DNA of 64,000 bases from Gammaproteobacteria bacterium (GCA_050740235.1 JBOIDB010000072.1:972-64971); one strand, 5' to 3'. Numbered from the stretch's first letter, positions 7,096 to 59,874 are shown. A program made the numbers and translations. The notes: generated by a model not told the origin, from the sequence alone.

Positions 7096-8537
7096 GCAAT
7101 CGCTCCGACGCCCTGTATCTGGCCATCGACCAGGGCGGACACGCCAGCCGCGCCCTGCTGTTCGACGTCTCCGGCCAAGTCGTCGCGTCCGCATTCGCGC
7201 CGCTCGACACGCGGCATCCGCGTGAGGGTTGGGTGGAGCATGACGCGAAATCGATGATCGAATCCGTCCAGCTCGCCATACGCGATGTGCTGAGCGAAGT
7301 GGAGGACGTCGCCCGCATCCGCGCCGCCGGGCTGGCGACCCAGCGCTCCAGCATCGTGTGCTGGGACCGGCGCACGGGCGAACCTTTGTCGCCGGTCCTC
7401 TCGTGGCAGGACCGGCGCAATGCGGCGTGGCTCGAGCGCCAGCGCCTCGAACCGGACGAGTTGCGTAACATCACAGGCCTCGTGCCTTCGCCGCATTACG
7501 GCGCGAGCAAGCTGCGCTGGTGCCTCGATCATCTCGAAGCCGTGCGCCTCGCGAGCGAGCGAAAAACGCTCGCACTCGGCCCGGTGGCCGGCTTTCTCCT
7601 GTTCCGGCTGCTTGCCGGGCGACCATTCGTCATCGATCCGGCCAACGCGTCCCGCACGCTGCTGTGGGACTACCGATCGCGCGACTGGTCGGCATCTCTG
7701 CTCGAACAGTTCGGCTTACCGCGCCCGATTCTGCCGGACTGCGTCGGCAGCCGGCATGCGTTCGGCCATTTGCCGGTTGCCGGCGCGAGCATTCCGTTGA
7801 CGGTTTGCACCGGTGATCAATCCGCCGTGCCCTTTGCGTTCGGTCCGCCAGGCGCCGGAGCGGCGTATATCAACATCGGCACCGGCGCATTCGTGCAGCG
7901 CCTTATCGGTCGCGCGCCGCCGGCGACGCGGGGGCTGCTCGTCAGCGTGGCCTGGCAGCACGCGGCCGAGGCCATTTACGTCCTCGAAGGAACGGTCAAC
8001 GGTGCCGGCAGCGCGCTGGACGCGATCGGCTGCGCGCAGCCCGCTTCGGCATCCAAAGCGCGCGACGATACAGAGCTGCTGTTTCTCAACGGCGTCGGCG
8101 GCCTGGGCTCTCCGTTCTGGCTGCCGGAGTTCGAGTCGCGATTCATCGGTGACGGCGACGCGACTGCTCGGCAGGGCGCCGTCCTTGAAAGCATCGCCTT
8201 TCTCCTGCGGGAGAACCTCGATTTGATGCAGGAATTGTCCGGACGGCTCGAATGGCTCATCGTGACCGGCGGCATCGCGTCGCGCGACGAGTTGTGCCGG
8301 GCGATCGCCGGGCTCAGCGGAGTGAGTGTGCGGCGGCCGGAGTTGCGCGAAGCCACGGCGCGCGGACTGGCGTGGCTGGTCGCAGACCGGCCGTCCGGCT
8401 GGGAGGTGCCGATGGAGGAATTCGCGCCGGCGCGGGACGCGGGACTGCGATCGCGATTCGCGCGATGGCGCAAAGCTATGCGGAGCGCGATTCGGAAGTC
8501 AGGGCATCGAGTATCCGGGCGTCGATCCAGCTCGTGA
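7092..8537 (+). CDS. FGGY-family carbohydrate kinase (glycerol kinase-like)
   Basis: ATG 7092 overlaps the upstream stop (ATGA). N-terminus LYLAIDQGGHASRALLFD..GWVEHD matches FGGY kinases. The track ORF from 6699 is an over-extension. Confidence 0.8.
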   Translation: MSNRSDALYLAIDQGGHASRALLFDVSGQVVASAFAPLDTRHPREGWVEHDAKSMIESVQLAIRDVLSEVEDVARIRAAGLATQRSSIVCWDRRTGEPLSPVLSWQDRRNAAWLERQRLEPDELRNITGLVPSPHYGASKLRWCLDHLEAVRLASERKTLALGPVAGFLLFRLLAGRPFVIDPANASRTLLWDYRSRDWSASLLEQFGLPRPILPDCVGSRHAFGHLPVAGASIPLTVCTGDQSAVPFAFGPPGAGAAYINIGTGAFVQRLIGRAPPATRGLLVSVAWQHAAEAIYVLEGTVNGAGSALDAIGCAQPASASKARDDTELLFLNGVGGLGSPFWLPEFESRFIGDGDATARQGAVLESIAFLLRENLDLMQELSGRLEWLIVTGGIASRDELCRAIAGLSGVSVRRPELREATARGLAWLVADRPSGWEVPMEEFAPARDAGLRSRFARWRKAMRSAIRKSGHRVSGRRSSS

Positions 8538-9513
8538 GGCCGTAGCCCTGCAGAAAACCGCAGTGGCCGCCGAAGGTCGTGGTTTCGATGGTCAGACACT
8601 GCGGCGCCTTCAGCCGCCCCGCGTCCGCGAAAGGGATGATCGGATCGTCGATGGCGAGAATGACATGCGACGGCACCGACAGCTCGTCGAGCGCCCCGTC
8701 GACGATGCCGTAGCCTTTCAGATAGGCGGCAAGATCCGCAAACTCCGAATGGTGGCGCACCAGATAGTCCGTCATTTCCGTCAATGTCTTCAGCGCCAGC
8801 AGCTCGCGAAAGTCATAGATACCGGGATGACAGGACTGCTTGAGCTTGAGCGAGCGCTTCCACTTGCCGACGAAATGCAGCCGGTAGCCGAGCCAGCCGG
8901 ATTCGAGCGCCTCGAGCGTGTGCTCGGGATCGAGCACCGGGCAGACCGCGACTACGCGTTCGATGGCGAGATTCGCCTTGCGGGCTCGCGCGGCCACGCG
9001 AAGCGCGAAGTTTCCGCCAAGCGAGAAGCCGGCGAGATAAAGCCGATGCTGCGGAAGCCTGCGGGCGATTGCCTGCACGGCGCCGACGACTTCGTCGAGG
9101 CGGCAGGAATGGAAGACCTCGACGTTCAGGTGATGGCTTGCGCCGTGATCGCGAAGATTCAGCCGGAAGACGTCGAAACCGCGCGCATACAGATGCGCGG
9201 CCGCGGAAAGCTGGTAGGTCGAATCGGCGCTGCCCTCCCAGCCGTGAATGAGCACGACGATGCGAGGGGACATGCCCGACTTCGCGTCTGCGAAATCAGG
9301 CATGTCCCCTTTTGCCTGCGACGCTCCGTGCGAAGGCCCCGCGTAATAACCCTGCAAGCGCACGCCGGCGCCGCAATCGAGCACCAGGGGCCGCGAGGCT
9401 TCGAGGAGCTTGCGCGCTCGACGCATGACGAACGGGCGGCGCAGCCGCATGCTCGCGAGCACCGCCTGCACGTGCGGATTGCGCAGCGCGCGGTTGGGAA
9501 CGAATGGGCTCAA
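8476..9513 (-). CDS. Alpha/beta hydrolase, YheT/ABHD-type
   Basis: VVLIHGWEGSADS, nucleophile elbow GFSLGG, N-terminal F.P.R.L.NPH.Q. TTG start at 9513. The 3' end overlaps the convergent FGGY kinase gene by 62 bp. Confidence 0.8.
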   Translation of the reverse strand: MSPFVPNRALRNPHVQAVLASMRLRRPFVMRRARKLLEASRPLVLDCGAGVRLQGYYAGPSHGASQAKGDMPDFADAKSGMSPRIVVLIHGWEGSADSTYQLSAAAHLYARGFDVFRLNLRDHGASHHLNVEVFHSCRLDEVVGAVQAIARRLPQHRLYLAGFSLGGNFALRVAARARKANLAIERVVAVCPVLDPEHTLEALESGWLGYRLHFVGKWKRSLKLKQSCHPGIYDFRELLALKTLTEMTDYLVRHHSEFADLAAYLKGYGIVDGALDELSVPSHVILAIDDPIIPFADAGRLKAPQCLTIETTTFGGHCGFLQGYGLTSWIDARILDALTSESRSA

Positions 9514-9529: not shown

Positions 9530-9615
9530 GGAAAATCGGGGTCAGACCGAGATTTCGCGAATGACACCCAAAGAATTTCGTGGGCTGCGAAATCCCGGTC
9601 TGAGCCCGATTTTCC
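9530..9615. repeat. Family-A inverted-repeat element (copy A1)
   Basis: Left arm GGAAAATCGGGGTCAGACCGAGATTTCGC (9530-9558) matches the reverse complement of right arm 9587-9615 at 27/29 positions, with a ~28-nt spacer. The core AATCGGGGTCAGACCGRGATTT recurs at 49865-49952. Confidence 0.85.
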
Positions 9616-14250: not shown

Positions 14251-16719
14251 GTGAAGCTGCAGCGTCTGCAGCTCAAGCAACTCCTGCTCGCGGTCGGGCT
14301 GACGGCCGGAACGGCGATCATCCTGTCCGCCATCCTGCTGACCGATTTTCGCGTTTTTACCGACGAGCTGCGGCGGCTCGCCGTCAGCAGCAACGAAACG
14401 ACACTGCGCGACGGCCTGTTGTCGCGCGCGCAGCTCACTGCCCTCGACACGGCGGACCGGCTTGCGGCGCCGCTTGCGGCCGAAGATCCCGCTTCCATCT
14501 TTGCCATCGCGGACATCGCGCTCGCGCGCGATGACGTAAGACGGCTGGTAATCACGGACAGCGCCGGCGCAGTAGTTCTCGATACGGCCGCGGAGGAACC
14601 GAATGCCGCGCCGATCGATCCTGCGCTCGAAGAGCCGCTGTGGACCGACGATACGCTGCTCGTGAGCGCGCCGGTGCGCGCGGCAGGCAGCGAGCTCGGC
14701 CGCGTTCAACTGACGCTTTCGCTGGATTCGCTGAACGGCGCGCTCGGCAACGTCGGCCGGGATATCCGCGAGGTCGACCGCCGTCAGTTGAAGCGAAGCC
14801 TCGTGCTCATCGTGATCACCAGCGGCATCCTGACGATCATCGGCATGCTGTTCGCCCGCCACGGCGCGCAACGCATCATAGTTCCCCTGCGCGAGCTGAC
14901 GCGCCGCGCGGCGCTGCTCAGCCAGGCGCCGCCGGAGGAGCGCCTGCAAATGCGGCGCAAGGACGAGCTCAGCGAGCTGGCGCAGGCCCTCGACGCCATC
15001 ATCCGCGAGCTCAAGAAGACGAGCAGCTCGCGCGACTATCTGGACAAGCTGCTGGCGAGCATGAACGATGCGGTCATAGTCATCTCGCCCGACGGCATCA
15101 TCAAGCGCGTGAACCAGAGCACGATGACGATGTTCGGCTACAGCGAGCCGGAGCTGCTCGGCCAGCCGTTGCAGTCCCTGCTGCCCGAGGACCGGCAACT
15201 CGATCTTTCGGTCAGCCAGATGTCCGTCGACGTGCTCGAATCCACCTTCGTCACACGCACCGGCCGGCACATCCCCGTTTCGCTGTCGAGCTCGCCGATC
15301 AGCACCGACGATCCGCAGTTCGAGGGCAAGATCCTCGTGGCCCGCGACATCACCGAGCGCAAGAAGGCCGAGAAGCGCATTCGTTTCCTGGCTCACTACG
15401 ATCCGCTCACCAAGGTACCGAATCGCATGCAGTTCCAGCATCTGCTGCAGCAGGCGATTGCCCGGGCGCGGCGCCAACGCCATGGCGTCGCGCTGCTCTA
15501 CATCGATCTCGACCGCTTCAAGGACATCAACGATACGTTCGGCCATCTCGCGGGAGACACGAGCCTGGAAACGGCCACGGCGCGGCTTCTGGCCGCCGTG
15601 CCCAAGGGCGCGATCGTCGGCCGGCTCGCCGGCGACGAGTTCGCAGTCATTCTCGACCGGCTGAACGCCGAGCGGAACGTCTCCACCGAGGTCGCGCAAG
15701 TGGCGCACGCGCTGCTCCGTTCGCTCGGCCATCCGTTCCGCGTGCAGGACAGCGAGGTGTTCCTGACCGCCAGCATAGGTATCGCGACGTACCCCGCGGA
15801 TGCGGACAATGTCATCGACCTGATCCGCAACGCCGACGCGGCGATGTACCACGCCAAGCAGATCGGCGGCAACAACTTCGAATGCTATACGCCGGAGATG
15901 AATGCGCAGGCGGTCGACCGGCTGATGATGAAGAGCAAGCTGCGCCGCGCGTTCGAGCGCAACGAGCTGATGCTGCAGTATCAGCCGAAGTACGACCTGA
16001 GCAATGGCGTCGTGGTCGGCGCCGAGGCATTGCTGCGCTGGGAGCTGCCGGGACACGGCACCATCGGTCCGTCGGAGTTCATCCCGCTCGCCGAGGAGAC
16101 CAACATGATCCTCGACATCGGCGAATGGGTGCTCGATCGGGTCTGCTCCGATTACAAGCTCTGGCAGAGCTCGATCCCGTCACCCGGGCGCGTGGCCGTC
16201 AATTTCTCGTTGAAGCAGCTCCGGCAGACGAACATCCGGCAGCGCATCGCGACGATCCTCGGCCGCCATGGCGTGGCGCCGCAGCGGCTCGAGCTCGAGA
16301 TCACGGAGACGACGCTCATGCAGGATGCCGAGCGGACCGTCGGCATCCTGCGCGAGCTGTTCGCCATGGGCTTGCACCTGTCGATCGACGACTTCGGCAC
16401 CGGCTACTCGTCGCTCAGCTCCCTGCAGCAGTTCCCGATCGGCACGCTCAAGATCGACCGGTCGTTCGTGCGGGACGCCGCCACGGACCCCGACGACGCG
16501 ACCATCGTGTCGATGATCATCGACATGGGCCGCAGCCTCAACATGGAGGTCGTCGCGGAGGGCGTGGAGAACGAAGAGCAGTTGTCGTTCCTGCGCAAGC
16601 GGCGGTGCAACTACGCGCAGGGACATCTGTTCGGCGACCCCATGAGCGCCGATGACTACCTCGAGCTGCTGCTGCAACAGCAGCAGGGCACCGACCGCTA
16701 CCTGGCTTTGTTCGCATAG
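14251..16719 (+). CDS. Membrane sensor protein with HAMP-PAS-GGDEF(degenerate)-EAL architecture
   Basis: GTG start. Two TM segments flank a periplasmic-type region. PAS-like region (MNDAVIVISPDGIIKRVNQS). The GGDEF site reads RLAGDEFAV (AGDEF). The EAL domain is intact (GAEALLRW, DDFGTGYSSL, KIDRSF). Confidence 0.9.
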   Translation: MKLQRLQLKQLLLAVGLTAGTAIILSAILLTDFRVFTDELRRLAVSSNETTLRDGLLSRAQLTALDTADRLAAPLAAEDPASIFAIADIALARDDVRRLVITDSAGAVVLDTAAEEPNAAPIDPALEEPLWTDDTLLVSAPVRAAGSELGRVQLTLSLDSLNGALGNVGRDIREVDRRQLKRSLVLIVITSGILTIIGMLFARHGAQRIIVPLRELTRRAALLSQAPPEERLQMRRKDELSELAQALDAIIRELKKTSSSRDYLDKLLASMNDAVIVISPDGIIKRVNQSTMTMFGYSEPELLGQPLQSLLPEDRQLDLSVSQMSVDVLESTFVTRTGRHIPVSLSSSPISTDDPQFEGKILVARDITERKKAEKRIRFLAHYDPLTKVPNRMQFQHLLQQAIARARRQRHGVALLYIDLDRFKDINDTFGHLAGDTSLETATARLLAAVPKGAIVGRLAGDEFAVILDRLNAERNVSTEVAQVAHALLRSLGHPFRVQDSEVFLTASIGIATYPADADNVIDLIRNADAAMYHAKQIGGNNFECYTPEMNAQAVDRLMMKSKLRRAFERNELMLQYQPKYDLSNGVVVGAEALLRWELPGHGTIGPSEFIPLAEETNMILDIGEWVLDRVCSDYKLWQSSIPSPGRVAVNFSLKQLRQTNIRQRIATILGRHGVAPQRLELEITETTLMQDAERTVGILRELFAMGLHLSIDDFGTGYSSLSSLQQFPIGTLKIDRSFVRDAATDPDDATIVSMIIDMGRSLNMEVVAEGVENEEQLSFLRKRRCNYAQGHLFGDPMSADDYLELLLQQQQGTDRYLALFA

Positions 16720-16727
16720 GGACATTC

Positions 16728-17903
16728 CTATCTTCCCAGGCCTGCCGCTTCTTCCTCGCCGTACCCGGCCAGCTCGACATAGCCTTCGCCCGTCGCGGCT
16801 TTTCCTCCATTGCCTCCTGCCACGCGCACCGCGCCTTCCCAGTAACGCACGCTGAGATCCATTTCCTGCGCTTCGACGTACGGTTGCACGTCGAGGACGA
16901 TGCTTTCGTTCGGCAACCGGAGCCGCCAGCCCATCGGGTAGGTCACGCCGCTGTCGGGGCTGGTCCATGAGCCGCTGCTCTCGATGGTGACATCGTGGGC
17001 GCCGAGCGCGCGGCGTGAACCATCCGCCGCCACGAGCGAGCCGGCGCTGAACGGATCGACGTCGCCGTCCTTACGCCGCAACCGGTAGAACATGATGTCG
17101 GTGCCGTCATCGAGCTGCAGCGCGAACCAGTCCCAGCCCGACAGGTGCTCACCGAGCGCACCGCTGCTCCACTCGCGGTCCAACCAGGCGCGGCCTTCGA
17201 CATCGAAGCTTTCGCCGTCGACGGTTATCCCGCCTGAGGCCGCGAGGCGTGTGAACGAGTAATAATAGGATGCGTCGCCGGGCGCCGGGCCCTTGCGGCT
17301 CAGGCCCGCGTCACCGTTGAGCACGACGGGCTTCGAGGTTGTCAGCGTCAAATCCAGTGCCATCGACTTGTCGCGCGCGTTCAGCCGCAGCGGGAGAAAC
17401 TCTTTACCCGCGCTCGCGGCGGACCAGTCGCCTAGCCAGACGCGAAACGGCTCCACCTTCGCACCGGCAAGGCCGAGCGCTGCGCGGTCGAATCGCTCCG
17501 CGGCGATATGCCGGCGGCCGGCCGTGTCCGTCACGGCGAAATGCGCCATGTAAACCTGGTCGGCGGCCCATGCGGAGTCACGCTCCGGCGCTTCCACCGC
17601 GAGCGCGAAGCGGAAGAACGTGATCTGGAAGCCGAAGTGTCGGCCCGCCGCATTTCGCAGATTGCCGGTGACATACCACCATTCGGTGCGGTAGTCCGGA
17701 TGCGGGCCGTGATCGGCCGGAAAGCGGATCGCACCGGGCTCAGTCGCCTGGGCGAATTCGCCGGACGGCGAATCGCCCAGCAGTCGCGCGACGCCGGGCG
17801 AGTCATCCCGACCGCCATCCGGCGGCAGCATCAGCCACGCGACGACCAGCGCGAAGGTGATCGCGCCGAGTGTCAGTGCCAGTGCACGGCCGTTCACGTT
17901 CAC
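16728..17903 (-). CDS. AttH-like lipocalin/CrtC-hydratase-fold protein
   Basis: GTG 17903 overlaps the permease stop (GTGA). FPADHGPHPDYRTEWWYVTGNL....FGFQITFFR is the AttH/hydroxyneurosporene-synthase-like signature. The track ORF to 18662 is an over-extension. Confidence 0.8.
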   Translation of the reverse strand: MNVNGRALALTLGAITFALVVAWLMLPPDGGRDDSPGVARLLGDSPSGEFAQATEPGAIRFPADHGPHPDYRTEWWYVTGNLRNAAGRHFGFQITFFRFALAVEAPERDSAWAADQVYMAHFAVTDTAGRRHIAAERFDRAALGLAGAKVEPFRVWLGDWSAASAGKEFLPLRLNARDKSMALDLTLTTSKPVVLNGDAGLSRKGPAPGDASYYYSFTRLAASGGITVDGESFDVEGRAWLDREWSSGALGEHLSGWDWFALQLDDGTDIMFYRLRRKDGDVDPFSAGSLVAADGSRRALGAHDVTIESSGSWTSPDSGVTYPMGWRLRLPNESIVLDVQPYVEAQEMDLSVRYWEGAVRVAGGNGGKAATGEGYVELAGYGEEEAAGLGR

Positions 17904-34385: not shown

Positions 34386-34419
34386 TGAAAAAGCCATGGA
34401 TGGCTTTTTCGACATCCTG
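34386..34419. repeat. 34-nt hairpin element (copy 1)
   Basis: TGAAAAAGCCATGGATGGCTTTTTCGACATCCTG matches the reverse complement of 55583-55616 at 33/34 positions. It lies 14 nt upstream of the kef-type gene ATG, inside a divergent intergenic region. Confidence 0.85.
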
Positions 34420-34432
34420 ATAATCTTTCGCG

Positions 34433-36477: not shown

Positions 36478-36580
36478 CTGAATGACCGGAGCCTTCTCGA
36501 AAACGCCGTAAATCCATCCTTGGAGGCTCCGGGGGCGACATCCTGTCGCCCACGGTTTCGAGAAGGCTCCGGTCATTCAG
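36478..36580. repeat. 103-bp nested hairpin downstream of the antiporter gene
   Basis: Perfect 25-bp arms CTGAATGACCGGAGCCTTCTCGAAA (36478-36502) and 36556-36580 enclose a 53-nt loop. The loop contains a perfect 8-bp hairpin, GGGCGACA-TCC-TGTCGCCC (36533-36551). Confidence 0.85.
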
Positions 36581-43724: not shown

Positions 43725-43797
43725 AAGGGGTTCCCGGTACCCTTTCTCAGTCGCTCCCCGATATGAGCTTGGTGAGAAAGGGTACCGGGAACCCCTT
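43725..43797 (+). repeat. Family-C hairpin, copy 1 (conserved loop, perfect 24-bp stem)
   Basis: Arms AAGGGGTTCCCGGTACCCTTTCTC (43725-43748) and its exact complement (43774-43797). Loop AGTCGCTCCCCGATATGAGCTTGGT (43749-43773). Starts 19 nt after the mdh stop. Confidence 0.9.
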
Positions 43798-43855
43798 GCC
43801 GGGCGTGATCACCTGCTGATCGTCACGTGGCGGTCGGCAAACGCTCACGCTGGCG

Positions 43856-43927
43856 GAGGAGATGCCTGTGTCCTTTTTCAGTCGCTCCCCGATATGAGCT
43901 TGGTGAAAAGGACACAGGCATCTCCTC
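43856..43927 (+). repeat. Family-C hairpin, copy 2 (same loop, unrelated perfect 22-bp stem)
   Basis: Arms GAGGAGATGCCTGTGTCCTTTT (43856-43877) and its exact complement (43906-43927). The loop (43878-43905) contains the identical core TCAGTCGCTCCCCGATATGAGCTTGGTGA. Confidence 0.9.
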
Positions 43928-43995
43928 GTTTGCATGCGCCTTTTCACCAGGCAAGTATCGGGGAGCGACTGCGAAAGGGTGCAGGGAACCCCTCG
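43924..43995 (-). repeat. Family-C hairpin, copy 3 (inverted, decayed stem)
   Basis: The reverse complement of 43944-43974 gives TCGCAGTCGCTCCCCGATACTTGCCTGGTGA, with the core 21/25 identical to copy 1. The right flank (43973-43995) is 20/23 identical to the copy-1 right arm. The two flanks pair at only ~14/22 positions. Confidence 0.8.
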
Positions 43996-46635: not shown

Positions 46636-47943
46636 ATGCCGCCGACCGAGCTCATCTATGAAGTGACGCTCGACATCGAGCCGGCCATCGAGGCCGAGTT
46701 CGATGAATGGCTCGAGCGCCACGTCGCGGAAATGCTCGAGCTGCCCGGCTTCGAGCGCGCCGAGCTCGAGACGGAAGCCGCGTCCGACAATGCATCCGGG
46801 TTGCGCCGCACGGTGCGCTATGCGATGCGGGACCGCGACGCGCTCGACGACTATCTCAAACAGCATGCCGATCGCATGCGTCAGGCGGGCACAGACCGCT
46901 TCGGCGGGCGCTTCAAGGCCACCCGCCGCATTCTGGAGCTGACGCCGCTCGGCGATCACGAGCATCCCGTGCTGCCGCATTGCGCGAATTGCGGCAATCG
47001 ACTGAGGGGACAGTATTGCGCGCGATGCGGCCAGCGCGCGCGGCGGCGAATGATCACGCTCTGGGAGCTGTTCCGCGACGTCGCGGAAGAGCTCTTCCAG
47101 CACGACTCTCGCGTCTGGCGCAGCTTCTTCCCGCTGCTGTTCCGGCCGGGATTCCTCACCAGCGAGTATCTGGCCGGTCGTCAGATGCGCTACGTGCCGC
47201 CTGTGCGCATGTACCTGTTCCTGAGCATCGTGTTTTTCCTGCTCGCGTTCGTCGCCGGGCCCGAAGGAGAGTTGTCCCTGTCGCCAGATGGCGTGCGGTT
47301 CGAAAAGTCTCCCGACGCCACCGGCGAGACGTCCGCAGAAGCGCCCGATGCAGGGCAGGAACAACCCGGGAACCCGGAGGAAGCATTGGAGCAAGCCTTC
47401 GAGACAGGCGAGGGCTTCGAGGAATTCGATTGCGCAGAGATAGATGGTGGGGTCAGGACCGGCTGGCCGATGCTCGATAGCCGTCTCTCGCGCGAGAGGA
47501 TCATCAGCAGCTGTGAGCGACTCGCCGCGGACCCGCGCGCGTTCGGTCGGGCGGTGCTCTCCAACCTGCCGAAGATGATGTTCCTCTTCCTGCCGCTGCT
47601 CGCCCTGGTGCTCAAGTTCCTCTACATCGGCTCGCGGCGGTACTACAGCGAGCACCTGCTGTTCGCCGTGCATTTCCATGCGTTCTTCTTCCTGATAGTG
47701 ATCCTCGACATCCTCCTCGGCATGGTCGTGCAGGGCATAGGCGCCGGCAATCGCCTGGCGTCGATCACGACGACAGTGATCGTCTTCTATATCCCGTGGT
47801 ACCTGTACCGTGCCATCCGCAATGTCTACGATCAGCATCTGCTGATACGGATGGTCAAGTATTTCTTCCTGGTGATCGCCTACTTCGTGAGCCTGGTGAT
47901 CATGCTCCTGATCACGTTGGCGTTCACCGCGCTGACGCTATAG
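46636..47943 (+). CDS. DUF3667-like zinc-ribbon membrane protein with N-terminal DUF4286-like domain
   Basis: N-terminal ~100 aa (LIYEVTLDIEPAIEAEFDEWLERHVAEML..). Zinc ribbon CANCGNRLRGQYCARCGQ, then FRPGFLTSEYLAGRQMRYVPPVRMYLF and several TM helices. Confidence 0.7.
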   Translation: MPPTELIYEVTLDIEPAIEAEFDEWLERHVAEMLELPGFERAELETEAASDNASGLRRTVRYAMRDRDALDDYLKQHADRMRQAGTDRFGGRFKATRRILELTPLGDHEHPVLPHCANCGNRLRGQYCARCGQRARRRMITLWELFRDVAEELFQHDSRVWRSFFPLLFRPGFLTSEYLAGRQMRYVPPVRMYLFLSIVFFLLAFVAGPEGELSLSPDGVRFEKSPDATGETSAEAPDAGQEQPGNPEEALEQAFETGEGFEEFDCAEIDGGVRTGWPMLDSRLSRERIISSCERLAADPRAFGRAVLSNLPKMMFLFLPLLALVLKFLYIGSRRYYSEHLLFAVHFHAFFFLIVILDILLGMVVQGIGAGNRLASITTTVIVFYIPWYLYRAIRNVYDQHLLIRMVKYFFLVIAYFVSLVIMLLITLAFTALTL

Positions 47944-48005
47944 AGGCTCGAGCGCGGCGCCGGGCTGCTAAAATGAAGACAACCGAAGTCCATCGGAGGA
48001 CTCCC

Positions 48006-48551
48006 ATGCCCACCAGACTCACCCTCGGGATCCTCGGCGCGGCGCTCATGCTGTGCGCCTGCGGCGGCCCGAATATTCAGGTCGAAAGGGATCCGGACGC
48101 GAACCTCGTGGAGTACGAGAGCTATTCCTGGGTTGCGCCGGAGCAGCAGGACGTCGAGGACCCCATCCTGGACAGCGCGCTGCTGTCGAAGAAGGTCGAA
48201 CGCGCCATTCGCGCGACGCTCGACGAGCGCGGATTCGAGGCGACCGAGACCAATCCCGACTTCTACGTCACGTATCACACCGCGAGCAAGGAGAAACTCC
48301 GCACGACCGGCTTCAACGTCGGCATCGGCTACAGCCGCTTCGATCCGCGTTGGGGTTATGCGGCCGTGTTCGGTCCACCCGAAGTCCGGTCTTACGAGGA
48401 GGCCGTTCTGATCATCGACGTCGTGGACGCCGAGACCGACACGCTCGTCTGGCGCGGCTGGGAGACGGGGCGTCTGAGCCGCGAGCGGTTCTCTGCGGAG
48501 GCGGTCGACGTGGCGGTAGAGCAGATCCTGTCGCGCTTCCCGATCGGGTGA
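48006..48551 (+). CDS. DUF4136-like lipoprotein
   Basis: ATG 48006 with GGAGGA 5 nt upstream. Lipobox AALMLCACGG. A paralog-like relative of 36649-37242. The track ORF from 47796 is an over-extension. Confidence 0.7.
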   Translation: MPTRLTLGILGAALMLCACGGPNIQVERDPDANLVEYESYSWVAPEQQDVEDPILDSALLSKKVERAIRATLDERGFEATETNPDFYVTYHTASKEKLRTTGFNVGIGYSRFDPRWGYAAVFGPPEVRSYEEAVLIIDVVDAETDTLVWRGWETGRLSRERFSAEAVDVAVEQILSRFPIG

Positions 48552-48670
48552 GGGGAACGGGGACATTCCTGATTCTCCGGGGGAAATGGGGACATCCCTG
48601 ATTTCCTTGGAAAGGTTCCGGAAATCAGAAAACACTGCATTCTTCGGAAATCAGGAATGTCCCCATTTCC
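48552..48670. repeat. Family-B repeat cluster B1 (two forward units, one partial unit, one reverse unit)
   Basis: Forward units are 48552-48578 (GGGGAACGGGGACATTCCTGATTCTCC) and 48579-48606 (GGGGGAAATGGGGACATCCCTGATTTCC). A partial unit, CCGGAAATCAG, lies at 48618-48628. The reverse unit CGGAAATCAGGAATGTCCCCATTTCC lies at 48645-48670. Consensus GGAAATGGGGACATTCCTGATTTYC. Confidence 0.9.
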
Positions 48671-49826
48671 TCCACGCGCGATCCTGCATGTCGACATGGA
48701 CGCGTTCTACGCGTCCGTCGAGCAGCGCGATGAGCCGTCGCTGCGCGGCAAGCCGGTGCTGGTCGGGGGCGCCGGGCCGCGAGGCGTCGTCGCCGCGGCG
48801 AGCTACGAGTCGCGCGTCTACGGCATCCGATCGGCGATGCCCATGCGCGAAGCGCTGACACGCTGCCCGCACGCGGTCTGCGTGCCGCCACGCTTCGATA
48901 GCTACCGGCGGGAATCGGCGTGCATCTTCGCGATCTTTCACGGCTTCTCGCCCCTGGTAGAGTCGCTCTCGCTCGACGAGGCGTTCATCGACGTCACGGC
49001 GAGTCGCTCGTTGTTCGGAGATGCGGCGGCGATCGGCCGGGCGATCAAGGACAGAATTCGCGATGCGACCCGTCTGAGCGCCTCCGTCGGAATCGGTCCC
49101 AACAAGCTCGTTGCCAAAATTGCGTCGGATCTCGACAAGCCGGACGGCCTGCGCCTCGTCGATGACGACAGCTTGCAGTCGACGCTGGATCCGTTGCCGG
49201 CGCGCGTCCTGCCCGGGGTCGGCCCGCGAGCCGCCGGGCATCTCCGCCGCATCGGGCTGACGACCCTCGGCGAGCTGCGCCGCGCTCCGGCCTCGCGCCT
49301 GCAGCCGATCTTCGGCCGTTACAGCGAGCAGATACGCCAGCGCGCTGCGGGGGTCGACGACCGGCCGGTAGTTCCGGACGCCGCGCGCAAGTCGATCAGC
49401 GCCGAGGAAACCTTCGATGCCGACCTGCCGCAGGGTCCCGAGCTGTCGCGCGAGCTGGCGCGGCTCGCCGATCGCACCGCTGCACGTTTGCGCGCGAGCG
49501 GCCTCGTCGCGGGCTGCGTCTGCGTCAAGATCCGCCGCCCGGATTTCGCCACGTTCACGCGGCGGCGGAGCCTCCATCCTCCGGCCAGCGGATCGCGCCT
49601 CATTCACGGCGCGGCCCGCGAGTTGCTCGGGCAATGGTTCGCTGCCGCGCCAGACGCGAAGCTGAGGCTGCTCGGAGTCGGGGTCGAGGATCTCGAGCCT
49701 GCCGGCCAGGCCGATCTGCTGGCCGCTCTCGGCACGGCCGGGAATGACGCGATAGACGATGCCGTCGACCGGATCCGCGCCCGTTTCGGCGAGGCCGCCC
49801 TCGGCAGCGCCCGCACGCTGCGGTGA
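48657..49826 (+). CDS. dinB: DNA polymerase IV (Y-family)
   Basis: ILHVDMDAFYASVEQRDEPSLRGKPVLVGG...GVVAAASYESRVYGIRSAMP. The only canonical in-frame start upstream of the catalytic HVDMD motif is ATG 48657, which lies inside repeat unit B1c. Confidence 0.9.
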   Translation: MSPFPPRAILHVDMDAFYASVEQRDEPSLRGKPVLVGGAGPRGVVAAASYESRVYGIRSAMPMREALTRCPHAVCVPPRFDSYRRESACIFAIFHGFSPLVESLSLDEAFIDVTASRSLFGDAAAIGRAIKDRIRDATRLSASVGIGPNKLVAKIASDLDKPDGLRLVDDDSLQSTLDPLPARVLPGVGPRAAGHLRRIGLTTLGELRRAPASRLQPIFGRYSEQIRQRAAGVDDRPVVPDAARKSISAEETFDADLPQGPELSRELARLADRTAARLRASGLVAGCVCVKIRRPDFATFTRRRSLHPPASGSRLIHGAARELLGQWFAAAPDAKLRLLGVGVEDLEPAGQADLLAALGTAGNDAIDDAVDRIRARFGEAALGSARTLR

Positions 49827-49864
49827 GCGGTCCGGACCCCTTTTGAGGTCCCCGCGCGTTAAGT

Positions 49865-49952
49865 GAGAATCGGGGTCAGACCGGATTTTTCCGAACGGCA
49901 TTCTACGGAGACCAGACGCAGATGGAGAAAATCCGGTCTGACCGCGGTTCTT
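49865..49952. repeat. Family-A inverted-repeat element (copy A2)
   Basis: GAGAATCGGGGTCAGACCGGATTTTTCC (49865-49892) faces GGAGAAAATCCGGTCTGACCGCGGTTCTT (49924-49952). It shares the core AATCGGGGTCAGACCGRGATTT with copy A1 and lies between dinB and exeA. Confidence 0.85.
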
Positions 49953-49989
49953 CGGCGGTAGAATACGCTGACCTGTTAGCCGGCTGACG

Positions 49990-51636
49990 ATGTACACGAG
50001 TTTTTTCGGCCTGAAAGAACGGCCGTTCGCCATCACGCCGAATCCGCGATACCTGTTCATGAGCGAGCGGCATGCGGACGCGCTCGCGCACCTGCTCTAT
50101 GGCGTAACCGAGAGCGACGGCTTCATTCAGCTCACCGGCGAGGTCGGCACCGGCAAGACGACGCTGATCCGCAGCCTGCTGGAGCAGCTGCCCGAGCACG
50201 TCGAGGCCGCGCTGATCCTCAACTCGCGGCTCTCGCCGAACGAGTTCCTGGTGGCGATCTGCGAAGAGTTGCGCATCCCCGTGCCCGCCGACCCGAACAG
50301 CGTCAAGGCGCTGGTCGACGCGCTCAACGCGCACCTTCTGGAAGCGCACGCGCAGGGACGGCGAGTCGTGCTCATCGTCGACGAGGCGCAGAACCTCGGC
50401 GCCGACGTCCTCGAGCAGGTCCGTCTGCTCACGAATCTCGAAACCGACCGGCAGAAGCTCCTGCAGATCATCCTCATCGGCCAGCCCGAGCTCAGGCAGG
50501 TGCTGGACCGCACCGATCTCCGGCAGCTCGCGCAGCGGATCACCGGCCGCTTTCATCTCGAGCCGCTGACGCGCGAGGAAAGCCGCGGCTACGTGGCGCA
50601 TCGTCTGCGAGTCGCCGGAGCGACCTCGGATATCTTCACGCCGCAGGCCCTCAACGAAGTGCACAGGCTGTCCGGCGGCGTGCCCCGGATCGTCAACGTC
50701 ATCTGCGACCGCGCGCTGCTCGGCGCGTATTCCCGCGAACAGCGTACGGTATCGCCGAAGCTCGCCCGCATTGCCGCGGCGGAGGTCTACGGCCGCGACA
50801 TGAGTCCCGTGTGGCACCGCTGGCTGACCAGCGGCGGCATCGTGGCGGCGGTCGGACTCGTCGCCCTCGGCCTGTGGCGCATCGGCGAGAGCGTCGGCAG
50901 CCGACAGGCCGGAGCGCGCGCCGACACTGAAACCATGGCGGAGGCGCCCGCCGCCGAAGCCAGGCCCGGGGCCGGCCAGCCTGCCGCGAGCACTTCAGAG
51001 CCGGCCGGCGAGCAGTCGTTTCAGACGCTCCTCGAAGATCACATCGCCACGACCGGCAACGATGCCGCCTTCACGACGCTGTTCGGCCTCTGGAGCGCCG
51101 AGTACCGGCCGGACGGGGGTCGGGCTTGTGCCCAGGCGGCCGATTTCGGGCTGCGTTGCGTCGTATCGCGCGGCTCGTGGGCCGATCTGTATCGCCTGCG
51201 CCGCCCGGCGATTCTCACCCTGACGGACGATGCGGGTGTTCAATACCAGGTCGTGCTGACCGGCCTCGGCGATGAGTCGGCGCGGCTGGATTTCGGCGGC
51301 GCCTCGCACGAGGTGCGCATCGGCACGCTGTCGCGTTACTGGTTCGGCGACTATCTGCTGGTCTGGCAGCCGCAGACCGGACAGGTGCGGCCGCTGACGG
51401 TCGGCATGCGCGGCGAGGACGTGCTCTGGCTGCGCGACAGCCTCGCCGCGCTGCAGGGGGAACCGGCAGACTCCGCGCGCCCGGAGGTCTTCGACGAGGC
51501 GCTCGCGGCACGCGTGCGCGAATTTCAGCGCAGCCGCCGGATCAGGGTCGACGGGATCGCCGGCGAGCGCACCTTGATCCTGGTCAATGCCGAGCTCTAT
51601 CCCGAGGGCACGCCATTGCTGGCGGAAACGGGTTAG
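49990..51636 (+). CDS. exeA: ExeA/GspA-family AAA ATPase with C-terminal peptidoglycan-binding domain
   Basis: MYTSFFGLKERPFAITPNPRYLFMSERHADALAHLLYG...LTGEVGTGKTTL. A TM helix, then a C-terminal PG-binding-like region (RVREFQRSRRIRVDGIAGERTL). Confidence 0.9.
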   Translation: MYTSFFGLKERPFAITPNPRYLFMSERHADALAHLLYGVTESDGFIQLTGEVGTGKTTLIRSLLEQLPEHVEAALILNSRLSPNEFLVAICEELRIPVPADPNSVKALVDALNAHLLEAHAQGRRVVLIVDEAQNLGADVLEQVRLLTNLETDRQKLLQIILIGQPELRQVLDRTDLRQLAQRITGRFHLEPLTREESRGYVAHRLRVAGATSDIFTPQALNEVHRLSGGVPRIVNVICDRALLGAYSREQRTVSPKLARIAAAEVYGRDMSPVWHRWLTSGGIVAAVGLVALGLWRIGESVGSRQAGARADTETMAEAPAAEARPGAGQPAASTSEPAGEQSFQTLLEDHIATTGNDAAFTTLFGLWSAEYRPDGGRACAQAADFGLRCVVSRGSWADLYRLRRPAILTLTDDAGVQYQVVLTGLGDESARLDFGGASHEVRIGTLSRYWFGDYLLVWQPQTGQVRPLTVGMRGEDVLWLRDSLAALQGEPADSARPEVFDEALAARVREFQRSRRIRVDGIAGERTLILVNAELYPEGTPLLAETG

Positions 51637-54433: not shown

Positions 54434-55582
54434 ATGGGCAGCCAACGACACTTGAAACCGGAAACGCTCGCGATACACGCCGGCCGCAGGCCGGGCGCGG
54501 AATCCGGCGCCGTCACCCCGCCGATCCACCTGTCGACGACTTACGTGCGCGCGGCCGACGGCAGCCTGCTGCACGGACACAACTACAGCCGCGAATCCAA
54601 TCCGACGCGCGACGCGCTCGAAGCCGGCCTCAGCGCCCTGGAAGGCGGCCGCGCCGCCGCGGCCTTCGCTTCAGGCTCTGCAGCGGCTCTGGCCGTCTTC
54701 AACACGGTGGACCCGGGCGGGCACATTGTCGCCTCCGCGGACGCCTATCACGGCATCGTCCGGCAACTCCGTGAGATCGTCGCCCGCTGGGGCACAGTGG
54801 TCTCGCTCGCCGATGCCAGCGATCCGGAGGCGGTGCGCGCGGCGATGCGCAAGGACACGCGCCTGGTCTGGATCGAAACGCCGTCCAACCCGCTGCTCAA
54901 GATCACGGACATCGGCGCCCTTGCGGAAATTGCGCATTCCGGCGGGGGCGTCCTGGCCTGCGACAACACGTTCGCGACCCCGATCCTGCAGCAACCGCTC
55001 GCGCTCGGCGCGGATCTCGTCGTGCACAGCACGACGAAATACATCGGCGGGCACAGCGATATCGTCGGCGGTGTGGTCGTCGCCCGCGAGAACGACGAGC
55101 GCTTTGCGCGAATCCGGCACTTTCAGGCGATCGGGGGCGCGGCGCCTTCGCCGTTCGATTGCTGGCTGCTCCAGCGCAGTATTGCCACATTGCCGTGTCG
55201 AGTCCGCACCCAATCCGAGTCGGCGGCAACCATTGCGCAGTTCCTGATGCGACGCACGGACGTCGAGAGCACGCTCTATCCCGGACTCTCGACCCATGCC
55301 GGGCACGCGCTGGCGGCGCGTCAGATGAAAGCGTTCGGCGGCATGTTGTCCTTCTGCGTTCGGGGCGGCGCTGCGGAAGCACTGCGCGTCGCAGCCGGCG
55401 TTCGCCTGTTCACGCGCGCAACCAGTCTCGGCGGCATCGAGAGCCTGATCGAGCACCGCGCTTCCTCTGAAGGACCGCACACACGCGCGCCCGCCAATCT
55501 GCTGCGCCTGTCCATCGGGCTCGAGCATGCCGACGACCTGAAAGCTGATCTCGAGAACGCGCTCGACGCGGCCGCGCTCTAA
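54434..55582 (+). CDS. Cys/Met-metabolism PLP-dependent enzyme (cystathionine gamma-synthase / beta- or gamma-lyase family)
   Basis: From ATG 54434: ...ETLAIHAGR....GAV.PPIHLSTTY...SR..NPTR.ALE, then STTKYIGGHSD (PLP lysine region). The track ORF from 53393 is an over-extension. Confidence 0.85.
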   Translation: MGSQRHLKPETLAIHAGRRPGAESGAVTPPIHLSTTYVRAADGSLLHGHNYSRESNPTRDALEAGLSALEGGRAAAAFASGSAAALAVFNTVDPGGHIVASADAYHGIVRQLREIVARWGTVVSLADASDPEAVRAAMRKDTRLVWIETPSNPLLKITDIGALAEIAHSGGGVLACDNTFATPILQQPLALGADLVVHSTTKYIGGHSDIVGGVVVARENDERFARIRHFQAIGGAAPSPFDCWLLQRSIATLPCRVRTQSESAATIAQFLMRRTDVESTLYPGLSTHAGHALAARQMKAFGGMLSFCVRGGAAEALRVAAGVRLFTRATSLGGIESLIEHRASSEGPHTRAPANLLRLSIGLEHADDLKADLENALDAAAL

Positions 55583-55590
55583 CAGGATGT

Positions 55591-55748
55591 TGAAAAAGCC
55601 ATCCATGGCTTTTTCACCTTTGCGATCCGAAAAGTGTGATTTTCGGATCGCAAGCATTTTCAAGAACTTGCAGTTCTCGAAAATGGCGATGCATCCATGC
55701 ATCGCTTAGCAGGCTGCCAAAAAACAGAGTACTACAACAGCCTGCTAA
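55591..55748. repeat. Five contiguous hairpins in a convergent intergenic region
   Basis: H1 55591-55616 (11 bp, loop TCCA). H2 55621-55652 (13 bp). H3 55655-55685 (14 bp with 1 mismatch). H4 55686-55705 (8 bp, loop TCCA). H5 55706-55748 (11 bp, 21-nt loop). Gaps between hairpins are 0-4 nt. Confidence 0.9.
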
Positions 55749-58198: not shown

Positions 58199-58308
58199 CG
58201 TGCGAAAACTCCAGAGATGCTTGGGGTGGTCTGAAAATACCACTATACTTGACCAATATCAACATATGTGATAAAACGCCCACCGACATAACAAAAGGAA
58301 AAGCCGCC

Positions 58309-58884
58309 ATGCGCCTCACCGACGATCGGTATGCCCGCGAGCGCGCCCAGTTCGAGCTGGCCCTGAGGATGATCCGGCACGAGGCACGAACCATGACGAT
58401 CCGGGCCTGTACGGGGCTCTCGGATGACCGGATCCGCAAGCTGTACGCCACCTACTTCAAGCCGAATGCGCAATTCAAGGTGAAACGGCGCCGCGGCAAG
58501 TCGCCGCGACAGACCGCCTTTCTGGTGCGCAGCGCGCAGAACCAGCTCGAATCGACGACGCTGGTCATCCTGTTCGCGCTCTGCGCGCTCGTACGGGTCG
58601 GTCGCGACGGCCAGACGCTGGAAATCTCGAGCGACCGCGGGCTCGAAACCGGGCTACGCTTCTGCCGCGCCTATGAGACCTACGCGCGCTTGCACAGCCC
58701 GCCCCGGCTCTCATTCGAGTGGGCCTGGAACCTGCTCGGCGCGATCACGCGGCCGCACGAGCTGTATCTGTCGAGCTGCGGGCGCTGCGAGAATGTCTAC
58801 GTGCAGGATGCGCTCGCGCTCGATCCGCATATCTGCCCGTGCTGCCGCATCAAGTCCGCGGCCCGGCCGCCCGTCGCGATATAA
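58309..58884 (+). CDS. FlhC-family transcriptional regulator homolog
   Basis: ELALRMIRHEARTMTIRACTGLSDDRIRKLYATY parallels FlhC [34 protein letters not shown]. The four-Cys zinc site is preserved (SSCGRC...x16...CPCC). ATG 58309 is preceded by AAAAGGAAAAG. Confidence 0.75.
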   Translation: MRLTDDRYARERAQFELALRMIRHEARTMTIRACTGLSDDRIRKLYATYFKPNAQFKVKRRRGKSPRQTAFLVRSAQNQLESTTLVILFALCALVRVGRDGQTLEISSDRGLETGLRFCRAYETYARLHSPPRLSFEWAWNLLGAITRPHELYLSSCGRCENVYVQDALALDPHICPCCRIKSAARPPVAI

Positions 58885-58888
58885 TTCA

Positions 58889-58978
58889 GGGGAAATGGGG
58901 ACATTCCTGATTTTCTGAGCGAAACCAGCACCTCGGCTGTCGAACGATCCCGAAAATCAGGAATGTCCCCAATTTCCC
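58889..58978. repeat. Family-B inverted-repeat element B2
   Basis: GGGGAAATGGGGACATTCCTGATTTTC (58889-58915) faces GAAAATCAGGAATGTCCCCAATTTCCC (58952-58978) across a 36-nt spacer. It starts 5 nt after the FlhC-like stop codon. Confidence 0.9.
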
Positions 58979-59874
58979 GGAAAGCCCCGCCCCTGCCGAA
59001 CGTATTTTCCGGCCTGCACGTCGACCGCGTCGCGCACCGGCGACGGGATTCGGCGTGGATCGAGCGCGCGCTGGTCTCCTCACGCACGCGCTTCGTGCCG
59101 GTACAGGACAAGCTGAGCCTCGTAAAGAACGGCGAGCCGCCTCGCCCGGTCCTTCTCGATCACGATCAGATTGCGCGAGCCGGCCTGCAGGCGGGCTCGC
59201 CGATCTATCTCGGCCGATTCGGCGGGCACGACTGTTTTGCCTGCGCTCTGACCGCCGACGCAGCACCCGCAGCCGACCTCGGTGGCGAGTTTCAGGATCT
59301 GCATCGGGTCGGCGCGCTGCTCGAAACCGCCGACGCCACGCTGCTCGCTTATGCGCGCGCCATGGTGCTTTGGCACCGGAATCACCGGCACTGCGGGCGC
59401 TGCGGCGCGCCGATCGCCATCACCGAAGCCGGCCACGTGCTGGTCTGCTCGGATGAGCAATGCGGCACACAGCAGTTTCCGCGCCTCGACCCTGCGATCA
59501 TCGTGCTGGTCGCGGACGAGGAGCGCTGCCTGCTCGGACGCCAGGCCGGCTGGCCGGCCGGCCGCTACTCGACGATCGCCGGCTTCGTCGAGCCCGGTGA
59601 AAGCCTCGAGGATGCGGTCACGCGTGAAGTTCACGAAGAGACCGGCGTCGAAGTGCGCGACGTGCAATATCATTCATCGCAACCGTGGCCTTTTCCGGCA
59701 TCGTTGATGCTCGGCTTCTCGGCGCGTCCTGCCAGCACGGCCATCGAGCTTCACGACCGCGAGCTCGAGGACGCGCGCTGGTTCACCCGCGAGGAAATCG
59801 CCGCGGGCCGGGCGGGCTTCCCGCCCAAAGTCTCGATCTCGTTTCGCCTGGTCGAGGATTGGCTCTCGTCATAA
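58963..59874 (+). CDS. nudC: NAD(+) diphosphatase / NADH pyrophosphatase (Nudix)
   Basis: Zinc ribbon HCGRCGAPIAITEAGHVLVCSDEQCGTQQFPR. Nudix box GFVEPGESLEDAVTREVHEETGV, then SQPWPFP. ATG 58963 lies inside repeat unit B2b. Confidence 0.9.
   Translation: MSPISRKAPPLPNVFSGLHVDRVAHRRRDSAWIERALVSSRTRFVPVQDKLSLVKNGEPPRPVLLDHDQIARAGLQAGSPIYLGRFGGHDCFACALTADAAPAADLGGEFQDLHRVGALLETADATLLAYARAMVLWHRNHRHCGRCGAPIAITEAGHVLVCSDEQCGTQQFPRLDPAIIVLVADEERCLLGRQAGWPAGRYSTIAGFVEPGESLEDAVTREVHEETGVEVRDVQYHSSQPWPFPASLMLGFSARPASTAIELHDRELEDARWFTREEIAAGRAGFPPKVSISFRLVEDWLSS

Follow-up and report, generated by a model that had tools for sequence, protein, structure and literature searches.

The described systems closest to the elements reported here are repetitive extragenic palindromic (REP) sequences and REPINs, the latter being REP doublets that form hairpins (Bertels & Rainey 2011, PMC3116915), together with repeats that reach into neighboring reading frames, such as Neisseria REP2 and similar upstream repeats of Borrelia, in which a repeat ATG is fused to chromosomal frames, and the RUP, BOX and BRE repeats, which extend the 5' ends of open reading frames (ORFs) (Delihas 2011, PMC3184786). 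As summarized in the same review, mycobacterial interspersed repetitive units (MIRUs; Supply et al. 1997) fill operon gaps with ends that overlap the flanking stop and start codons, and Rickettsia palindromic elements (RPEs; Ogata et al. 2000) are palindromes tolerated in frame inside genes. Here we describe family B, a palindromic dispersed repeat found in a stretch of 64,000 nucleotides (nt) from a Gammaproteobacteria bacterium (GCA_050740235.1, JBOIDB010000072.1:972-64971; hereafter the window), where one copy lies immediately upstream of nudC and another upstream of dinB. The initial annotation of this DNA had called it unusual that a dispersed repeat should donate two start codons; we find that the donation itself is well supported by comparison with orthologous sequences, whereas documented precedents such as REP2 make it uncommon rather than new. 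What sets family B apart from these precedents is its anatomy, that of a REPIN-like palindrome.

The nudC element occupies 58885-58982 and consists of two 31-nt arms (58885-58915 and 58952-58982) that are 90% complementary and enclose a 36-nt spacer, the prospective hairpin loop (58916-58951), an arrangement that agrees with the inverted pair originally reported between an FlhC-like gene and nudC. The FlhC-like gene (58249-58884, plus strand, from the ORF list; weak Pfam FlhC match, E 6e-6) belongs to a gene order, flhD-flhC-nudC-TANGO2, that is conserved in the related loci L002-L006, and its TAA stop codon (58882-58884) abuts the left arm, which begins at the very next base. Both arms are read here on the plus strand: the left one is a forward (F) unit with core GGAAATGGGGACATTCCTGATTTTC and two mismatches against the unit, and the right one is a reverse (R) unit, GAAAATCAGGAATGTCCCCAATTTCCCGGAA, which contains the nudC ATG (58963-58965) and encodes MSPI(S). 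Residues 1-5 of the 303-amino-acid (aa) NAD+ diphosphatase (58963-59874, plus strand; Pfam NUDIX-like, Zn_ribbon_NUD and NUDIX) are therefore repeat-encoded, with the start codon lying inside GGAATGTCCCC of the outward-facing arm. Upstream of 58963 the nudC frame stays open as far as the TAA at 58882-58884 and contains no ATG, GTG or TTG, and the next canonical in-frame start is 132 nt further downstream, beyond the conserved PNVFSGLHVDR...R block, which upholds the earlier statement that no other canonical start precedes the conserved NudC sequence. The repeat is far from a chance resemblance: the right-arm 27-mer occurs twice in the window at up to 3 mismatches, compared with no occurrence in 100 shuffles, and GGAATGTCCCC occurs nine times at up to 1 mismatch, compared with 0.82 expected. 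The spacer is not common to other copies, save for a weak similarity to the spacer of the nudC element at L002/L081 (local alignment score 9 vs. 5.6 ± 1.2 shuffled, p ~0.02). We additionally observed that the FlhC-like gene and nudC share one reading frame, with one TAA and then 26 open, element-derived codons between them; a read-through fusion is conceivable, with coincidence probably the likelier explanation.

The dinB copy, a related element of three units, occupies 48552-48673 and begins immediately after the TGA stop codon (48549-48551) of a DUF4136 gene (47796-48551, plus strand). Its outer left unit, F1 (48552-48578, plus strand; GGGGAACGGGGACATTCCTGATTCTCC; direct-repeat family D6), abuts that stop codon and pairs with the R unit in the predicted fold, and its inner left unit, F2 (48579-48606, plus strand; GGGGGAAATGGGGACATCCCTGATTTCC; repeats D6 and I23), is followed by a decayed inner right unit (48620-48628, plus strand) that reads GGAAATCAG before diverging and was recognized from sequence and folds. 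Because this decayed unit pairs with F2, the element is nested, F1[F2..r2]R1. The right unit (48646-48673, plus strand; repeat I23) contains the dinB ATG (48657-48659) and encodes MSPFP at the head of a 389-aa DNA polymerase IV (48657-49826, plus strand; Pfam IMS and IMS_C). This is the first ATG of dinB, and it holds the same position in the unit (GGAATGTCCCC) as the ATG of nudC, so that, as had been proposed, two unrelated proteins share a repeat-encoded N-terminus of the form MSP(F/I), MSPI… in NudC and MSPF… in DinB. Homology with DinB orthologues resumes at CCACGCGC (Pro-Arg-Ala-Ile-Leu), and the next in-frame start would be the Met within the conserved HVDMD motif, after which no listed orthologue starts. 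The DUF4136 gene and dinB are likewise in one reading frame, with two stops between them (48549 and 48570). In a comparison of L005 (GCA_965610025.1, 3434-5848) with the window (47796-51636), the DUF4136 gene of L005 is followed directly by a GspA-like AAA gene, without dinB, which implies a gain or loss of dinB at this position within the lineage.

Orthologues with empty sites show, at the level of sequence comparison, that the native start codons of nudC and dinB have been displaced. A block conserved among NudC orthologues, PN(V/I)F(S/A)G..(D/E)R..(H)(R)R, starts at residue 12 of the window protein, and the element-free relatives have their own starts ahead of it: L003 (NudC 84% identical) carries in-frame GTG and TTG codons 8-10 codons before PNVFSG, L004 (70% identical) has a GTG start, and L005 (71% identical) has a called GTG plus a downstream in-frame ATG that gives MSPDPNVFAG. 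The codon-by-codon alignment of L003 and the window begins only at CGG AAA (~58978), and the window sequence 5' of that point is repeat tail. A second species, represented by L002/L081 (NudC 80% identical), carries the same repeat family at the same junction, and its protein begins MSPFPPNIFAG. Farther afield, a protein-guided scan of JGI metagenomes recovered relatives of at most 58% identity plus one partial match at 76%; the family-B unit was absent from all 80 of the more distant nudC loci, the seven loci read at the 5' end have native starts a few codons before the conserved block, and a metagenome scan with the nudC 5' pattern gave no match. For dinB, all listed orthologues start 3-8 residues before ILHVDMD; the distance from the DUF4136 stop to the dinB ATG is 14 nt in L120, and in L119 dinB reads ATG CAA CAG CCA CGC, with homology to the window resuming at CCACGC. 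On this comparison the ancestral start region is missing from both genes, leaving the repeat ATG as the sole canonical option. Both genes are also under purifying selection, with ratios of nonsynonymous to synonymous distance (dN/dS) of 0.16 for nudC between the window and L002 (both with the element), 0.18 for nudC between the window and L003, and 0.14 for dinB between the window and L119. Two of the automatic gene calls in these relatives are 10-18 residues too short: P0002 (NudC, L003 622) starts MDRGAH... though in-frame GTG and TTG codons lie upstream, and P0122 (DinB, L119 150) starts MDAFYAS... though an in-frame ATG lies upstream.

The potentially occluding hairpin mentioned in the initial annotation is also recovered in RNA folding, where the structure predicted for the nudC element has a free energy of -52.6 kcal/mol (z -6.6) and a perfect 20-bp helix that contains the ATG; for the dinB element the value is -73.2 kcal/mol (z ~ -6.5), and the right arm folded alone is predicted to be unstructured (-6.1 kcal/mol). 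In both elements AGGA directly adjoins the ATG (spacing 0 nt), and because it touches the start codon it cannot act as a Shine-Dalgarno sequence. A search of the elements for terminators returned one weak terminator-like match, within F2. Two other routes to initiation were considered and set aside. A leaderless mRNA driven by GAAAAT or GGAAAT as a -10 box 5 nt before the ATG is contradicted by the lack of a conserved -35 and by variation at position 2 of the hexamer, and coupling through a ribosome at the upstream stop codon would, from the geometry, melt ~12-15 nt of the left arm and free 58968-58982, not the ATG.

These features bear on whether the repeat ATG is used at all, as opposed to being in frame by coincidence, with translation starting at a non-canonical downstream codon (ATT or CTG in nudC, ATC or CTG in dinB) or with both genes silenced and decaying. 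One insertion in three would fall in frame by chance, the R unit has no stops, a usable Shine-Dalgarno is lacking, the ATG is sequestered in the predicted helix, and in-frame CTG and ATT codons do occur between the ATG and the conserved block. We nevertheless regard an unused ATG as very unlikely: dN/dS values of 0.14-0.18 indicate that both proteins are still selected, the arrangement of element and nudC is retained in a second species at a synonymous distance (dS) of ~0.7, all sampled orthologues start with ATG, GTG or TTG upstream of the conserved block, and two independent genes within 64 kb would both need rare start codons. An assembly artefact, in which the repeat drove a chimeric join in a metagenome-assembled genome (MAG), is extremely improbable. 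Repeats of ~100 nt can in general mislead short-read metagenome assemblers; here, the flhC-element-nudC junction recurs identically in the independent Logan assembly L001, which argues that it is real, two more independent assemblies supply the junctions of L002 and L081, and the gene orders flhD-flhC-nudC-TANGO2 and DUF4136-dinB are conserved in relatives.

The history of the nudC insertion is less simple than its outcome. Synonymous distances in nudC are 0.50 between the window and L003, which lacks the element, 0.72 between the window and L002, which carries it, and 0.67 between L002 and L003. As the element is absent from the closer relative and present in the farther one, there were either two insertions or one insertion followed by a clean loss; the left and right junctions at nudC also differ between the window and L002. 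The idea that the spacer represents ancestral intergenic DNA was rejected, given that it has no similarity to L003 (p = 0.65 and 0.90). In L119, the gap between the DUF4136 gene and dinB is occupied by a different palindromic family (GGGGTCAGATCTCGTTTTATG...CATAAAACGAGACGTGACCC), whereas the window has family B there, so that such junctions seem to attract elements repeatedly. A relative of the palindrome in this L119 gap is found elsewhere in the window, at 9530-9615, with 29-nt arms that are 93% complementary (GGAAAATCGGGGTCAGACCGAGATTTCGC).

To place these two copies within their family, we searched one genome per species for the exact 17-mer GGGGACATTCCTGATTT, which was found in at least 112 genome stretches, several per MAG, and among the matches listed nearly all are from Steroidobacteraceae or unclassified gammaproteobacterial MAGs. 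The resulting census (223 units from ~0.9 Mb of related genomes, as 8-kb pieces per genome, plus the window) defines a unit of ~25 nt, GGAAAT-CA-GGA-ATG-TCC-CC-ATTTCC, with a near-invariant 21-nt core (AAATGGGGACATTCCTGATTT), two of which are set opposite each other on either side of a spacer that measures 0 to ~130 nt. The prevailing arrangement is the FR doublet (67, vs. 39 singlets), accompanied by a few FFR, FRR and FFRR arrays. RF adjacency is seen only between neighboring elements, so that the ATG faces outward at both element ends, each of which continues from this ATG into an open TCC CCA TTT CC tail, and the R unit is free of stops in all three frames. Distances from CAT to ATG fall into classes of 27, 37, ~60 (61 in nudC, 64 in dinB), 78 and ~100 nt. 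Spacers are mostly unrelated; a few subfamilies share them, examples being the pair of copies in L095 and the loops of class 37 (GTACTANTAC). Immediately inside the core, 4 nt differ from copy to copy and remain complementary within a copy, at a mean of 2.70 of 4 positions, compared with 1.44 ± 0.11 when partners are shuffled (0/500 shuffles reach 2.70).

The long size classes enclose a second palindrome, AAA(A/T)GGGGACGCGCCTC...GAGGCGCGTCCCC(T/A)TTT, which is nested exactly within the family-B loop. We found such long elements in L007, L008, L020, L023, L036, L044, L051, L054, L058, L067, L075, L079, L097, L101, L109 and L112. Judging from its sequence, the module AAA(T/A)GGGGAC common to both palindrome families hints at a shared recognition motif.

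With respect to genomic context, 106 clusters have a called gene on both sides, and 91 of them are intergenic, with the other 15 inside called gene cores. The 91 classifiable clusters comprise 52 in tandem, 32 in convergent and 7 in divergent gaps, a significant depletion of the divergent class (p = 2e-5), and 84 lie downstream of the 3' end of at least one gene. Within the window, a solitary decayed F-type remnant (16719-16737, plus strand; GGGACATTCCTATCTTCC) likewise stands directly after the TAG stop of its upstream gene, and a diverged B-like inverted pair (GAGGGGACATGCCCGACTTCGC / GCGAAATCAGGCATGTCCCCTTTT; 9264-9313) lies inside a yheT-like hydrolase gene (8476-9513, minus strand), where it is in frame and encodes GDMPDFADAKSGMSP in a variable loop; most aligned orthologues are ~15 aa shorter. 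Units are also in frame inside an Lhr-type helicase gene (L020, ~2625-2756) and a histidine-kinase gene (L030, ~4148-4181, minus strand), the latter with two tandem units that give ...TTKSGMSPFSLTTKSGMSPFSL..., and in both cases the domains lie downstream of the units and the frame is open for 804-891 nt upstream; these two genes may be intact, or split and restarted. Such in-frame copies recall the RPEs as the review presents them, with the difference that RPEs, at ~100-150 nt, are mostly intragenic, whereas family B is mostly intergenic and only a minority of its copies are of this kind. To the extent that the same review describes MIRUs, family B resembles them in touching the upstream stop codon and containing the downstream start, and is unlike them in being an inverted pair with a buried ATG, where MIRUs are direct tandem repeats with small ORFs of their own that couple translation.

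The closest overall match is to REPs and REPINs. Like these, family B is a short conserved unit occurring mainly as inverted doublets with predicted hairpins; its singlets resemble doublet remnants; it forms higher-order clusters; it is mainly extragenic, with a bias toward gene 3' ends; it lacks target duplications; it persists across related species; and it keeps arm complementarity within each copy. It differs from them in a unit that by itself, as single-stranded DNA, is only a weak and imperfect palindrome (-3.6 to -4.7 kcal/mol, with z only -1.1 and -2.2), an unusually variable spacer (0-130 nt), and a noticeable minority of copies that overlap coding sequence. Family B also resembles Correia elements of Neisseria and pneumococcal RUP, BOX and SPRITE repeats, small inverted repeats that are co-transcribed with adjacent genes, form long RNA hairpins and sometimes lengthen ORFs at the 5' or 3' end. 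Correia elements are further characterized by a TA target duplication, an IHF site, defined outward promoters and documented RNase III processing. In family B, by difference, the target duplication was tested and is absent: at the flanks of 81 doublets we found six 2-nt repeats, compared with 4.3 expected, and none of 3 nt or more.

This last result also bears on an origin as a classical MITE (miniature inverted-repeat transposable element), an insertion sequence with internal deletions that a DDE transposase mobilizes, which would have the same consequences for the genes. Terminal inverted repeats of ~25-31 nt, a total length of 60-190 nt, the spacers shared by some subfamilies (the two L095 copies and the class-37 loops) and the existence of filled and empty orthologous sites would all suit a MITE. 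Besides the missing target-site duplications, however, spacers vary widely in length and sequence, down to abutting arms, the tandem arrays (FFR, FFRR) and the nested second palindrome are as in clusters of REPINs or bacterial interspersed mosaic elements, REPs typically show the same leaning toward gene 3' ends, and no transposase was seen in the loci examined, where no systematic search was made. We therefore consider a MITE origin unlikely. Sequence features as a whole appear to match REP/REPIN-type elements better than MITEs derived from insertion sequences, although the defining partner of REPINs, a RAYT (Y1 transposase) gene usually flanked by the same units, did not turn up in a weak test of the ~0.9 Mb and the window. 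No Rfam family reaches its gathering score anywhere in the window, and the one match obtained at a permissive threshold was dismissed as a chance miRNA hairpin (E 0.21). We found no paper on such repeats in Steroidobacter, and family B appears to be undescribed. Our preferred reading is that it is probably a dispersed repeat of the REP/REPIN type, non-autonomous and forming hairpins, that is common among Steroidobacteraceae and related gammaproteobacterial MAGs and for which start donation is a by-product.

Whether donation is instead a systematic property of the family was addressed by asking, for every outward ATG in the census, if a probable gene on the same strand reads through the unit without a stop, and in which frame, with genes near units called by our own codon-usage model, trained to separate sense from antisense frames. 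A same-strand gene is open through 52 of the 223 units, in frame 0/1/2 in 25/11/16 cases, and the other 171 have none. Collapsing tandem units and one dubious ORF, by our own count, leaves 21/9/15 (p = 0.043; three-frame chi-square p = 0.09), and removing the two cases from the window leaves 23 of 50 in frame 0 (p = 0.042). The frame-0 excess amounts to ~6-8 cases. A frame bias, one of the outcomes by which the initial annotation proposed to judge its claim, is thus present as a weak excess, and most in-frame copies nonetheless appear to keep a native start. Orientation bias, the other such outcome, turned out not to be a meaningful test, as the element is symmetric with an outward ATG at both ends.

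From inspection, Pfam positions and recognized N-termini, a likely native start lies 9-45 nt downstream in most frame-0 ORFs. Examples include MSPLQSR-MPTHPP, which from its N-terminus we take to be GuaB, MSPFTSTRASSRR-MTKSELIE, presumably an IHF/HU-type protein, and MSPIFHRFIQEGADD-MLFIV, a YCII protein and the sole example with Pfam support; Pfam domain position backs a surviving native start for L012 only. An element-borne start is needed in a smaller set, comprising TrpF in L053 (PRAI domain from residue 8), an amino-acid permease in L114 (domain from residue 12), nudC in L081, and probably also a transporter of the MFS family in L052. The number of element-dependent starts is about that of the frame-0 excess, which fits an insertion upstream of genes that is neutral with respect to frame, with start-deleting copies surviving only in frame. 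Native starts are spread evenly from +8 to +50 relative to the unit ATG with no peak at Shine-Dalgarno spacing, and a role for AGGA as Shine-Dalgarno donor to native starts 8-12 nt downstream was ruled out on that ground.

The census and the anatomy together allow us to weigh the idea of a portable cassette dedicated to starts or regulation, on the model of Neisseria REP2, that would place dinB and nudC under common translational control. REP2 proves that such cassettes exist, and family B resembles it in that a dispersed-repeat ATG is fused to frames and unrelated genes share a repeat-encoded start. In the same direction point the outward AGGA-ATG at both ends, the R unit open in all three frames, the fact that both intact window elements donate a start, the small frame-0 excess (p = 0.02-0.04), the likely same-strand genes through 52 of 223 units together with gene starts commonly 8-50 nt from the unit ATG, and the burial of the ATG in the predicted hairpin. 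REP2, however, brings a promoter and a ribosome-binding site, acts as a 5' regulatory module upstream of genes and has no terminal inverted repeats, whereas family B is a symmetric palindrome located mostly at gene 3' ends, in which we detected neither a promoter nor a correctly spaced Shine-Dalgarno. Further points against a cassette are the 171 of 223 units without a same-strand gene reading through, the position of 84 of the 91 classifiable clusters at gene 3' ends with avoidance of divergent, promoter-type gaps, the native start that most frame-0 cases appear to keep 9-45 nt downstream, the even spread of native starts without a Shine-Dalgarno peak, and the unrelated functions of the affected genes (nudC, dinB, trpF and a permease). 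The behavior of the element is not that of a cassette dedicated to expression, and we judge this explanation distinctly unlikely. Since the frame-0 excess is weak and the native start mostly survives downstream, start donation looks like an occasional, survivable by-product of insertion and not a built-in function; as a systematic and unusual property of the family it is weakly supported.

Several observations weigh against our preferred reading of a REPIN-like repeat with donation as by-product. Use of the repeat ATG is something we infer, and the combination of no correctly spaced Shine-Dalgarno with an ATG in a very stable predicted helix argues against efficient initiation there. No sigma-70-like promoter was found in either element, and none that could start transcription inside the loop. 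A tblastn search for a RAYT-like gene in the ~0.9 Mb of 8-kb pieces and the window reached a best E of 0.76, in a weak test with E. coli YafM as the query. The nudC history may require two insertions with replacement, or one old insertion with deletions and a clean loss. Finally, the census counts depend on home-made gene calls and a sample of many genomes.

Under the REPIN-like reading, most elements would come to rest shortly past the end of a gene, in intergenic gaps that are very short. The copies at nudC and dinB span the entire gap, from the stop codon of the preceding gene through the first codons of the following one; there, the repeat ATG would have become the start codon after the native start was lost, with the first 4-5 residues (MSPF/MSPI) encoded by the repeat, and copies that removed a native start would persist only if their own ATG was in frame, giving rise to the small frame-0 excess. 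Because ancestral nudC and dinB closely follow their upstream neighbors, co-transcription with the upstream gene is likely, and if both arms were co-transcribed a helix of ~20-30 bp would bury the ATG. Given the buried ATG and an AGGA too close to it, translation of nudC and dinB would be expected to be weak or to depend on processing or unwinding. By analogy with REPs of E. coli, for which effects of this kind were reportedly described by Newbury and colleagues in 1987 and by Liang, Rudd and Deutscher in 2015, a hairpin near the upstream stop codon may also stabilize or dampen the message of the upstream gene.

A more speculative extension, which we hold to be quite improbable, is that the family has been molded to be gene-compatible and that its hairpin acts as a post-transcriptional switch wherever it has replaced a start, so that the repeat would define a regulon with the stress genes dinB and nudC among its members. 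Outward ATGs and a stop-free R unit would then let the family colonize tight operon junctions and even coding sequence, and the 20-30-bp hairpin could be opened by RNase III cleavage, by a helicase, or by ribosomes that terminate at the upstream stop codon next to it.

The window contains further repeats and structures besides family B. At 43726-43994, in the gap between a gene ending at 43706 and another starting at ~44078, there are three copies of a 53-56-nt unit, two direct and one inverted, that are 79-85% identical. A 37-nt sequence with the hairpin AAAAAGCCATGGATGGCTTTTT occurs at 34386-34422 and again, inverted and 21 kb away, at 55580-55616 with 95% identity, and from its sequence looks like a shared terminator-type stem-loop. 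An inverted repeat at 36478-36580 (CTGAATGACCGGAGCCTTCTCGAAAACG...) has 28-nt arms that are 96% complementary around a 47-nt spacer. On the minus strand at 222-319, ARAGORN calls a tRNA-Ala(CGC) spanning 98 nt, unusually long for a bacterial tRNA, which could reflect an insertion, an intron-like segment or an over-call.

For annotation, these findings mean that gene callers mis-place starts around family-B repeats in Steroidobacteraceae MAGs, and that proteins beginning with MSPF should be read as repeat fusions. For evolution, nudC and dinB offer a clean natural case, with both filled and empty sites, of a selfish palindrome overwriting the start in two unrelated housekeeping or stress genes and providing what appears to be a working substitute, and they offer a test case for how expression can be supported when the start codon lacks a Shine-Dalgarno and is buried in a helix of ~ -50 kcal/mol. 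More broadly, the family may be the sign of a REPIN-RAYT-like system, so far uncharacterised, in a soil lineage that has been little studied.

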